Source of the DNA: Octopus vulgaris
Taxonomy: Eukaryota
Assembly (NCBI GenBank): GCA_951406725.2
Contig: OX597834.1
Coordinates: forward strand, 4,650,001-4,714,000
Reading direction: 5' to 3'
Length of the DNA: 64,000 bases
Shown here: positions 13,521 through 42,519 of the stretch, one piece after another
How positions within the stretch are numbered: the first letter of the stretch is position 1
How the letters are laid out: every line of letters begins with the position of its first letter
Position numbers and translations under genes: made by a program
Notes under the pieces: generated by a model
What the model was told of the DNA's origin: nothing
Databases searched by the model: none
What the model saw: only the letters and a program-made list of their open reading frames with translations

Positions 13521-14049
13521 TGTGTATATATGTATATATATATCAAAATAAGCAACACGATATCAAGAAGTGATGCAGTACGACCGTTTCAAGCGGCTCT
13601 ATTTAATTGAGCAAGGGTATAGAAGGGAATGGACAGACTGCTCCTCACTATAAGGATAAGAAAAATACTGGTAATAGAGACATACCTAATAATCAAGCCA
13701 CGATTTTGAGAGGCGTTGAGAGAACAGGTAGATTCCACCCTTACATGCGCCCTTACATGAAAATAACACATAGAATAGTTGTAGTAGGATTAATATTAAT
13801 AGTAATATTAATAATAATAATGGTATGAATATCAATAATATTAATAGCAGTAATTCTCCTAGTTGCAATTGTAGAGTTGCAATTGTAGATGTCTAATCCA
13901 AAACGTAATCTATAAGTTTACAATCACAGGTGTAGCTGGTAACTTTGTATATATAGGATGTTCAATAAATATGAAAAAAAATTAATAACCATTTTTCATC
14001 TTTTCGGCTCAAACATAATACCAATTGTACGTCCTTATCTAACAAGATT

Positions 14050-16300
14050 TGGGAACTGAAGGAATGCCGAATCGAATTTAGCCTTAAACGGGATATTATA
14101 AGGAAAGCGTATCCTTATAGAGATAGTTGATCTGGGTGCGAGCTGTGCTCTATGGAAACTTATGACACTTACCCCCTAAAAGAAAGCAAAACATAAAACT
14201 GTGCAACATATCTAGGAAACATACCAGGTGGTATAGTTGCGAAATGAAGTTAACACGTCTCGTGTTTCTTAATAACTAATATTCGTCTTCCATTCTGCAA
14301 CCGATATATCCGGGGTAAACTTACAGATAATGTTTTTTTTCTTCTTTATTTTGTTCTAGTCCTGGAACAACTGTGACTGAAACGTCTTGTCTTCCCAGTT
14401 GGTAAATCTTTTTTTATAAATAGTAGTCCCCCACTAAGTGCTGAAGCTAAAGAAACTAGACCGAATAAAGTAAGCGGAGCTTGTCTTTTTTATGGCAAGC
14501 GAAAATATTCTGAGCCAGTGGAAATAGAGTCAATGTCCATCGCCATAGTTTTCTTTTCAGCACTTAATTCCTCCTCTGTAATTTGCTACTAGCTAACTAT
14601 TTACGAAATCTAGGTGACGCTCTTACAATTTTTGCTCTTACTTATGACCAACCACGTTGATAATGGCGCCCGTCAATTTCCGTTTAAAAAGTTCGCTCTT
14701 GAGTCCATCGAAATATCTCTGCATCAAAAGATGGCATTCAACTTCCATTAACCCGTTTACTCACTCTGCATTGATCTCTTCTTAACTGATTGAATAGGTC
14801 ATAACTTTGTTGTCTGTGTAGCTAACTATGACCAACAGCCGACATCATAACCTCATACGATCTGCATGCAAGTTTGTAATTATGTCAAATCAATATTGAA
14901 GCATTCGAGAAATGCAGGTAAAACCTGCCAGGCCATTGGAGGGACAGAAGAAAATTTTCTGGCGTTTATACTTCCTTTCTTTCTCTCTGCTTCTGCAAGA
15001 CAAACTTTAAATTCCTGCAAAATACCATTCTAAAGGTACATTAGTACTAATGAACGCATTTTTACTAGGAGTATCACAGTCTAAAACAAATCTGTCCTAC
15101 CCACACCAGTCGCAACTTAAAATGACAGTAATATGGTGACCTCCATTGATCTGTTCATAGCAGTTCACACAGTTTGATGCACCGAAGTATTATGTGAGTC
15201 GAGGATATTTGTATTTACCTCGAAATGCAGGTGTTTCCGTAAAAGCAACCGTTTTTACATTCACGACGATGTAGCACACCACGTGGTCATTGACAACGAG
15301 TTCTCGTGGTTTCTCTCAGAAATTATAGGCTTGCTAATGTCTGCTACATCCGCTTATAATGAAAACATTTCCGGTAATTAACCCTCTTAGATTGCAAGAC
15401 TTTAACATCCACCAATCCCGTTGCACAACTGTTAGACGACGTTGAGGGTCAATCGATATTTTGATGCACTCTCAGAGCCTGCTTCACTTAGGACTTCAGC
15501 TTCGAAAAGCAGATGAACTGCGGATTAATGTATCTTATGAGAAGCCGTATTTCGTCTGCCGTTATGTTCTGAGTTCAAATTCCGCCGAGGTCGACTTTGC
15601 CTTTCATCCTTTCGGGGTCGATAAATTAAGTACCAGTTACGCACTGGGGTCGATGTAATCGACTTAATCCGTTTGTCTGTCCTTGTTTGCCCTCTCTATG
15701 TTTAGCCCCTTGTGGGTAGTAAAGAAACAATTATACATGTTCAGCGTACGATAAGCTTTCTAACTTTCGAAACTCTAACAGATGTCTTTACATTAGGAGC
15801 TTAGCTTTACCAGATCGTTGCGCAGAGATTGTTAGCAGGAGTTGTACCGCCTGACTAGTAAAAGGTGGACTTTTCACAAAAATTGAATAAAAGACGTCCC
15901 AATCTCACCAGAGGGTAATTGGGACGAGACAATGATCGACTAACTTACCCTGCCATCAAATTGCAGGTATCATTTTGTCTGGTTTGATTTGTTTCTCTGC
16001 AGCAGCCTCCATTTCCTTGAGAATTGTGCCGCCCACCAGCACCATCACCACCACCTTTTAGATGGTATCAGAAAAAATGATGGTGTCATCGTTTCTATAT
16101 ACTGAAACGGGTTTCCACGTCCTAGTTCCAAAATGATGCTCCCGAACGGTGTCTGCACCCGGCTCGAGAGCCATGTGCAATTCAGAAGAAATGGTATGTC
16201 CTGACATACAGAGCATGCTATGCGAAAGGGTTCCAAGAGGTCGTAGTTTTACTTTGATCCTCAAACAGATGCCACCGTGCATTGCATCCACCTGGCCCCT
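14050..16300 (-). pseudogene. Heavily decayed Ty3/Gypsy-like pol remnant (RT, RNase H, possibly integrase), interrupted by a SINE
   Basis: Minus-strand fragments in collinear order: SVY..DDTIIFSDT (YxDD-like), KQIKPDK, VNYRK..ADISKP, DRFVLDCDT (RNase H FxLxTDAS-like), EAERK, GGLLF..VVP; many stops and frameshifts. Confidence 0.5.
15544..15728 (+). mobile_element. SINE family B, single ~184-bp unit lacking the A-box head
   Basis: Matches one unit of the 1183-2149 array. Confidence 0.88.
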
Positions 16301-20304: not shown

Positions 20305-21157
20305 TGAGAGGGTACCCAAAAGTAATGCTCTCTGTTGCATAAGCCCGTTGTAGTTCAGGCTTCCACAGCTAGAAGCCACTTGATGCAACCCTCAGGCATC
20401 AGTACGTGGTGCCTCTATGTGTTGTAGTGCTTCTCCGCTGTTCGTCGATTTTTGCGATGGCTTAAACGAAGGAACAGCCTGCTTCCGTGAAATTCTGTTT
20501 GCAGCTGGGGAAAGCGGTCACCGAAACAGTTGTCATGCTTCAAACAGATTACAAAGAAGCTCCCATGAACAAAATCGGCGCTTCTGAGTGGTTTCCAGGC
20601 TTTGGGAACGATCATTTATCGCTTGAAGACCAACCTCGTTCAGGACGACCGTCGACCCCCCGAACGAGTGAAAACATCATTAAGATTCATGAACTAATCT
20701 TCAAGGATCGTCACCGAAAAATTGATGAACTTGCTGACATGACAGGTGTGTCCTTGAGCTCCTGCCAAGGAATTTCGTGTGAGGAATTGCGAATGAAAAG
20801 AGTTGTAGCAAAATTTGTGCCTCGCTTGCTCACAGAAGATAAAAAGCAGTTACAACTGTATGCATATCGTGAACTGAAAGAACAGTTGGAAGTTGATCCG
20901 GACCTTTCGTCTAAGGTCATCACTGGTGATGGAAATTTGTGCTACGGAATTTGCAGATGTGGAAGAGGTGAAGAAAAACACAACGGAGATGTTAAAAGGC
21001 AAGAGTTCCAGGACTGCTTGGAATTGTGGAAAACGCGCCGGGACAGATGTATTGCTTCAAATTGCGGATATTTTGACGGCGATGACAGTGTAAACATGGA
21101 AATCTAAGGGAATAAAATGATGTTGCAAAATTTCGGTTTCTGTTGGGCCCACCCTCG
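20305..21157 (+). mobile_element. Internally deleted mariner-like element
   Basis: TA-flanked degenerate TIRs (TGAGAGGGTACCCAAAA versus reverse complement CGAGGGTGGGCCCAACA); transposase fragment inside. Confidence 0.8.
20487..21107 (+). pseudogene. Mariner transposase fragment (HTH domains, first catalytic D motif, most of the catalytic domain deleted)
   Basis: KFCLQLGK..TET; LEDQPRSGRPST; AKFVPRLLT (WVPxxL-like); KVITGD; then jumps to W..R..RCI...G.YF.GD. Confidence 0.85.
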
Positions 21158-32273: not shown

Positions 32274-32366
<93 letters not shown>

Positions 32367-32406
32367 TAAATGAAAAGAATAGAGTCGAACGAAGATTTTA
32401 ACAAAA

Positions 32407-32505
32407 TTCCTTTACTTTAGACATATGTTTCGAAGACTGCATACTCTTAATTCCGAAGGAATGAAGGTTGCATTATGCGGTCTTCTCATCAGGAAATACA
32501 AGGAA
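32407..32505 (-). ncRNA. Type I hammerhead motif, left arm
   Basis: Mirror of 32601-32699; TCATCAG at 32486-32492. Confidence 0.78.
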
Positions 32506-32600
32506 TCTCAATCAGCCTCAAGACGAACAAAAGCTTCTTACCGTCTGCCTACATGGTTTCCACAGTAAGAAGCTTTTGTTCGTCTTGAGGCTGATAGAGG

Positions 32601-32699
32601 TTCCTTGAATTTCCTGATGAGAAGACGGCATAATGCAACCTTCATTCCTTCGGAATTAAGAGTATGCAGTCTTCGAAACATATGTCGAAAGTAAAGGAA
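32601..32699 (+). ncRNA. Type I hammerhead ribozyme motif, right arm
   Basis: TTTC-CTGATGA(32614)-GAAGAC..GTCTTC-GAAAC-ATAT-GTC-GAAA; 6-bp helix II extended by GCATA/TATGC; palindromic ACATATGT helix III; helix I extended by TTCCTT/AAGGAA. Confidence 0.85.
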
Positions 32700-32883
32700 T
32701 TTTGTTAAAAACTTCGTTCGACTCCATTCTTTTCAGTTATTCATATAAAAAACACACAAATTTCCACACACGAACACGGGGTTCGGCCCTTGGCATGTAA
32801 CTTCAACCGTGTTTTACTGACGTGAATTTGCTACCTAGGTATTGATTAACCGAATTATCCATACTAGGATAATTTATTCATCT

Positions 32884-32910
<27 letters not shown>

Positions 32911-33402: not shown

Positions 33403-33696
<294 letters not shown>

Positions 33697-33701
33697 ATAT
33701 A

Positions 33702-41637: not shown

Positions 41638-42519
41638 ATAAGCTTGCTACTAATTCCTTCTGTCTCTTATACCAAACTGCCAAGTCATGGGGACATAAAC
41701 AAACCAACACCGGTTCTCAAGCGGTGGTGGGGAACAAACACAAACATATACATACATATATAAATTAAAGAGTGTAGGAAATGGAGAAGGCAAGTCCGTA
41801 CTACCCATGTCGCTAATCCAATCTGAACTTATCTTGTGTAACTCCAATTCCCGTTTCATTGCCTTGTTTTAACAGACCTTGCCCCATTTGTTCCCACCGT
41901 CTCCCTTCTCCCGATGCCTACCCTCCTCCTTTAATAAACTGACCTTCTAAAGAACATTCTATTCTCTCAAATGTTGCTTGCCTGCTGATGAATTTCATTT
42001 GGCATTTGACTTAGCTGTTTCCTCCTACCATTCTGTTGTGGCCAAAATTAGAGAATCTTCGCTTCTCTCTTTGCGACAATGCTTTACACCCGTAGTTAAT
42101 ACGACCTGAAGAAAATCTGAGCTGCCTATATATGTGTTGCATCTTTTGATTACGTATAACCTGTTCAGATTGGTTTGAAAAGATGTGTAATATTGATTGG
42201 CCTTCTCCATTCCCCAGACTCTTTAATTTATAATTGCATAATTAGAAATCTTCGTTGCATAGTCGCAGTCATATTATCGAAGTCGCTATCGAATTCGATA
42301 TGGAATGAAATATATCACATGGATTACATTCGTTGATTAATAAACCTTTTCGATCTAGTATCACCAGCTTTATGTCAATTGTACAAAAACCTGTACATGC
42401 TTACTAAGTACCTGTACCAAGACGTTTTGGGGGATCACACTGCTCCACGACTACACACGTATACACACAACACACACGCAGACCCCGTCCCCCACACACG
42501 TCTATATACAATGTATGCA

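Follow-up and report, generated by a model that had tools for sequence, protein, structure and literature searches.

The window, that is, the whole stretch of 64,000 nt of Octopus vulgaris DNA that was analysed, contains a fold-back pair of hammerhead-bearing arms of which only the right-hand one continues into a tail. The locus raises the question of whether such a structure is an element able to act from either strand or the by-product of an insertion and, in the latter case, of how an insertion can acquire two inverted arms and a tail on only one of them.

Architecture and hammerheads of the inverted pair

The first-pass annotation had described inverted arms of about 185 bp around a gap of about 17 bp, with the right copy running on for some 140 bp into (TA)n, and the measured structure agrees with it on each of these points. 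The arms (32359-32544 and 32562-32747) are 186 nt each, are 95% complementary, with 9 differences in the arm-to-arm comparison over 32359-32747, and lie 17 nt apart; the right copy extends about 138 bp beyond its arm, to 32885, into (TA)13.5, and the left arm abuts (TA)44. The features are the following, where element coordinates (q) are counted from q1 = window 32562 and S and T denote the tailless and the tailed end:

32276..32363, no strand: (TA)44, left half of the target microsatellite (repeat scan)
32364..32566, minus strand: left arm, tailless (S) partial pLTR, from about q183 back to q-21, including the 17-bp "spacer"
32420..32492, minus strand: left hammerhead core, from CTGATGA (32492-32486) to GTC (32422-32420), with G>T at 32419
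32562..32566, no strand: inner junction, a 5-nt overlap, exact in the left arm and 4/5 in the right arm
32562..32747, plus strand: right arm, partial pLTR q1-q186
32599..32701, plus strand: type I hammerhead, predicted cut after 32686 (motif, fold and covariation)
32748..32885, plus strand: tail (T end), about 138 bp, start of the 5' region of the element, which continues into the ORF in L046
32886..32912, no strand: (TA)13.5, right half of the target microsatellite

A foreign origin of the spacer was considered and rejected: the 17 bp are the element's own upstream sequence, carried on by the left arm to 32566 (q-21), where this arm overlaps the right one by a microhomology of 5 nt. A target-site duplication is unreadable inside (TA)n. 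Elsewhere in the window, at 1232-2153, a 184-bp unit is repeated in five tandem copies that are 94% alike.

In the right arm, CTGATGA (32614-32620) adjoins a 6-bp helix II (32621-26 with 32669-74) that carries an extended stem-loop of 42 nt; GAAAC-ATAT-GTC leads to the predicted cut site after 32686, helix I is made of 4 bp, an internal loop and a distal stem, and helix III, of 2 bp, is palindromic (ACATATGT). Rfam at gathering thresholds gave no match in the window, so that the hammerhead call rests on motif, fold and covariation. Among 18 related motifs of this genome, 79% of the cells are paired, against 65% after shuffling, and two-sided changes occur in 14 of the 18 pairs, it being understood that the rows were picked by a core regular expression, which makes core conservation a matter of construction, and that their kinship inflates covariation. 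The helix III palindrome remains self-complementary across these motifs.

Each arm had been credited with a full hammerhead, and hence a ribozyme with presence on whichever strand is transcribed. This holds for the right arm, whose motif is complete; in the left arm the base directly following the cut site, 32419, is T and not G, which turns the first helix I pair (1.1-2.1) into C-U, and a scan requiring this pair recovers the right-hand motif only. The two-way claim is further weakened by the palindromic 2-bp helix III, which implies dimer dependence, and such metazoan motifs are indeed described as dimer-dependent and weak in vitro (PMC4209133). In the predicted ensemble of the monomer, the active-like fold accounts for 0.9% in the right arm and for 0.07% in the left one. 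The accompanying suggestion, that pairing of the arms buries the ribozyme, is supported by folding: the 526-nt RNA of the hairpin has a predicted fold of -325 kcal/mol (z-score -34.8; 0 of 100 shuffles as good), and imposing helices II and III inside the full hairpin costs about 103-106 kcal/mol on either strand. Both hammerheads are predicted to lie buried in a duplex of about 185 bp in a read-through transcript, and such an RNA would be double-stranded.

The metazoan type I hammerheads of PLEs (Penelope-like elements) and non-LTR retrozymes likewise have a short palindromic helix III and a long helix II, and opposite-strand pairs 100-700 bp apart, like the one described here, have already been noted in Schistosoma (PMC4209133). 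The octopus motif differs from those of the same source in the 42-nt extension of helix II, in having no unpaired base after A9 and in the lack of tandem monomers.

That the locus is functional in its own right, as a retrozyme-like element, an exapted two-way ribozyme or a source of dsRNA, would agree with the intact core of the right hammerhead, with the covarying fold of the family and with the reported relationship of PLE pLTRs to retrozymes (bioRxiv 10.64898/2026.07.22.740005). The features of the locus speak against it: the inner junction is private to this locus, about nine scattered private changes have accumulated in the arms, one of them in helix I, and the inner ends of related insertions show no accumulation at the cut site of the hammerhead, where only L197 is fused. 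No tandem repeat was found at the hairpin locus; a non-LTR retrozyme was rejected on the ground that tandem hammerhead-bearing monomers, the tandem units by which retrozymes are defined (bioRxiv 10.64898/2026.07.22.740005), are missing there. We regard a function of this kind as highly improbable. The locus, a single one without sign of function, is a dead, 5'-truncated, head-to-head PLE insertion of an ordinary kind in a (TA)n tract, and its hairpin is best read as an insertion by-product, not as a designed two-way ribozyme.

The parent family and its (TA)n targets

Alignment and motifs identify the parent as a high-copy, endonuclease-positive PLE. Related copies are found elsewhere in its own genome (2.8 Gb), where all 40 matches scored, out of 3352 candidates, are full-length with 91-100% identity and 16 of these 40 have an inverted partial arm. 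Exact matching in the genome gives 681 hits to the hammerhead core, 169 to a pLTR motif specific to the subfamily and 760 to the tail end; the reversed-motif controls give 0. The earlier attribution to Penelope, made from the inverted partial pLTR and the one-sided tail, is borne out by copies that lead into an ORF with reverse transcriptase (RT) and GIY-YIG motifs. This ORF, with YRDD and a GIY-YIG-type C-terminus, lies upstream of the same pLTR and, in L046, downstream of the tail; it is represented by an open stretch of 693 aa in L047 and by pieces in L046. The RT and GIY-YIG motifs of the family protein align with those of 253 homologs, and it is on this alignment and on the motifs that the identification of both domains is based, since neither an RT nor a GIY-YIG family was matched in Pfam by P0001, P0002 or the N-terminal piece.

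Of 30 loci, 29 have a tail that gives way to (TA)n, the exception being L003 (the same as L046), where the ORF follows the tail; the tail corresponds to the first part of the next unit of the element. The length of the unit is estimated at about 3.3 kb. A sister subfamily, 75-80% identical, shares the ORF and both ends. The family may already have an entry in Repbase or Dfam. L046:3298-3365, which lies upstream of the first ATG, is a candidate 5' intron (CAG/GTATCG ... TACAG) with the T end inside it, which, if the intron is real, would mean unspliced templates. None of the data sets that contain the element is recorded as RNA. Contigs from four runs, three of them guessed to be RNA, cover the element, and they show neither a GT..AG joint at the candidate intron nor piled ends at the hammerhead site, two signals for which such contigs are unreliable. 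Another open stretch of the window, at 20466-21104 on the plus strand, looks like what we take to be a fragment of a mariner-type transposase.

As for the placement of the family, its protein has RWL and DKT (in L046:3390-3878), and its endonuclease lacks CCHH, with CxxC and CxH flanking the catalytic E and N; Craig et al. 2021 (PMC8557442) characterize the Hydra clade by RW(K>L), DKT, the absence of CCHH, a CxxC that precedes E and a CxH that follows N. The C-terminal endonuclease, the hammerhead and the (TA)n targets are common to both, and the order of the RT motifs, as judged by eye, matches that of the Hydra proteins in the supplement of the same paper. By contrast with the Hydra clade, whose units are under 3 kb, the octopus unit is longer and has no CxCX5C linker: a linker of this type is present in 109 of the 120 homologs listed and absent from all 19 translations (11 distinct copies) of the octopus family, in which its position holds an Asn-rich sequence of 78-137 aa. 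Asn-rich inserts between RT and endonuclease are reported in rotifer PLEs (Adineta vaga; PMC3846280). Hydra-1_Obim, the octopus family listed in the Hydra clade, keeps the linker, has a different, short-loop hammerhead and is another family than the element described here. We describe the latter, from its sequence, as Hydra-like and, the linker being absent, do not file it as a member of the Hydra clade.

The outer ends of the insertions abut (TA)5 or more in 122/133 and 123/144 cases, a condition found at 7.7% of random places in the window. The Cys linker has been proposed to aim PLEs at (TA)n, and a family without it offers a natural test of whether the linker directs the endonuclease to these tracts. 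At 13975-14163 (plus strand) the window contains what is left of a GIY-YIG endonuclease of Hydra type, a short piece with 33% identity to P0002 (E 7e-7).

Pairing of the S and T ends

The family has 3' ends at two fixed positions separated by some 140 nt, S (about q186) and T (about q324-333); each lies in (ATTY)n-like sequence and adjoins (TA)n. In a first sample of 87 loci, taken from the first 100 matches of the hammerhead motif and classified by hand, 49 loci are two-ended and all 49 consist of one S and one T. A second sample, in which the first 100 matches of the young subfamily gave 76 loci, contains 51 two-ended loci, which are again all S + T (one row printed SS is a sister-subfamily pair, the right arm of which runs into the tail of that subfamily), the remainder being 13 loci with T only, 8 with S only and 4 with an internal inversion or a tandem piece. 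Eight loci being common to the two samples, all 92 distinct two-ended insertions carry the tail on one arm only, a count conditioned on one exact motif per sample and on some contigs only, with classes drawn from BLAST ends and including about ten arms with shortened ends, the compound locus L130 and L141, whose tail is displaced by an insertion. In a check that does not depend on the S/T classification, the pLTR motif, over its first 100 matches, forms 22 pairs (counted by eye) with members on opposite strands and no more than about 1 kb apart, and the first 100 matches of the tail-end motif are all more than 40 kb from one another. Since S-only and T-only insertions both exist, either end can be used alone. 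In six loci (L002, L048, L194, L066, L107 and L119) the second arm starts at an internal site that is neither S nor T, as in L1 twin priming.

Canonical endonuclease-positive PLE units share with those described here the head-to-head partial pLTRs, the one-sided tail that is the start of the element, the hammerhead in the pLTR, palindromes or microhomology at the junctions and the Asn-rich insert between RT and endonuclease (PMC3846280, PMC8557442). They differ in the length of the tail, which is 30-40 nt there and about 140 nt here, and in that the tail is optional according to these sources, whereas in the octopus family it is on exactly one arm of every two-ended insertion.

The inner junctions were compared in 49 adjacent pairs, with the window locus excluded and L189 amended by hand. 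In 23 of these pairs it is the S arm that extends further 5' and in 17 the T arm, the two being level within 3 nt in 9; five T arms consist of the tail only, with no overlap with the S arm, and S arms of kilobases that contain ORF sequence also exist. Junction overlaps are of 1-13 nt in most pairs, and 11 of the 49 junctions, two of them doubtful for 33-35 unaligned bases, are symmetric within 5 nt, often at natural palindromes (1.4 expected by shuffling). In 23 pairs (three long loci omitted), the number of non-majority alleles common to the two arms of an insertion is 20, where 3.3 would be expected and the maximum in 5000 shuffles is 12.

These data bear directly on the self-priming route proposed in PMC3846280, in which the cDNA primed at the tail folds back at a palindrome and copies itself, with an endonuclease resolving the hairpin at S, a resolution proposed in PMC8557442 to account for the tail. 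Such a route explains why the tail is on one arm, why the arms share alleles and why symmetric junctions are in excess, and it needs a tailed arm that reaches at least as far 5' as the tailless one. The reverse is seen at the window locus, where the tailless arm is the longer one 5', and in 23 of the 49 pairs, to which the T arms made of tail only and the kilobase-long S arms must be added. One-sided tails together with longer tailless arms mean that simple self-priming cannot produce all of the pairs; it is refuted as the only route, is unlikely as the general explanation and may operate in a subset of the insertions.

A further alternative is that the insertion proceeds in two steps, a second reverse transcription event adding the inverted copy at the 5' end of the first, or that S/S and T/T pairs did form and were lost by instability or assembly collapse. 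Compound and tandem loci are indeed present (L092, L130 and L132), but two independent steps give no reason for the strict S + T composition and are at odds with the alleles shared by the arms of one insertion; moreover, S/T palindromes of 200-500 bp have been kept and assembled, which makes loss of the S/S and T/T classes alone implausible. We hold this explanation to be quite improbable.

Proposed route of insertion and other hammerhead-bearing repeats

We consider it probable that the two arms are separate cDNAs, produced by paired priming from both ends of the target at two RT start sites. An RT-endonuclease, likely a dimer, would cut both strands in (TA)n, one target end priming reverse transcription at S and the other at T; the template of both cDNAs would probably be a single RNA, or RNAs from a single source copy, and both cDNAs would run through the uncut hammerhead. 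Their 3' ends would then be joined via a short microhomology and filled in, and the hammerheads would be passengers of the pLTR. At the window locus, the S cDNA would have stopped at q-21 and been joined to the T cDNA near q1-5.

This proposal is consistent with in vitro data which come from another PLE clade: the PLE protein cuts and extends both strands, with starts at two sites that bound the tail, it is predicted to be dimeric, and hammerhead cleavage is not needed (PMC11167929). The element studied there, PAc (Poseidon of Anolis), has, like the octopus family, two 3' ends bounding the tail, AT-rich targets and reverse transcription through an uncut hammerhead; it differs in its clade and in the distance between the start sites, which is 30-40 nt, and the formation of inverted pairs is not addressed in the available part of that paper. 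Paired priming meets a difficulty in the 11 symmetric junctions, which it explains only on the assumption that both cDNAs end at a shared RNA end and are able to anneal there at palindromes only, and the sharing of alleles between arms also fits self-copying or later gene conversion. Neither an empty target site nor an intermediate was seen.

One-sided tails and inverted copies are already in print, and what is added here is the strictness of the S + T pairing and the targeting of (TA)n by a family without the linker. No paper stating a twin-priming model for PLE inversions or a strict S + T rule was found in a search that covered few subscription papers. On balance, we give somewhat better than even chances to the joint reading in which the S + T rule reflects a single twin-primed, two-site product and not self-priming, and in which (TA)n is targeted without a Cys linker. 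The origin of the tandem and inverted repeats of PLEs and their choice of microsatellites are named as open in PMC8557442; the S + T rule relates the inverted architecture to the pair of start sites observed in vitro in PMC11167929, a connection that is testable in a reconstituted reaction. Hundreds of such hairpins could be sources of dsRNA if transcribed.

Several unrelated repeat families (L205:4830-4943, L008:1202-1324, L100:2423-2544, L104:518-637, L110:3356-3472, L113:5791-5906, L011:2103-2220 and L132:2795-2911) also have a hammerhead in which the cores are some 50 nt apart and helix III is the palindrome ACA-NN-TGT; the centre of this palindrome varies among TA, TG, GC and AT and is always self-pairing, as a dimer-dependent ribozyme would need. 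Three further sites of the window resemble hammerheads. The pLTR remnant of another family, at 33505-33700 (minus strand), lies beside (TA)n with a degenerate, short hammerhead-like core, and similar sequence is present in 19 fetched loci; a CTGACGA...GAAA motif with weak helices, at 33110-33070 (minus strand), belongs to a repeat found in 6 fetched loci; and a degenerate motif with a long helix II, at 42106-42190 (plus strand), has the same build as the one described here and no match among the fetched loci.
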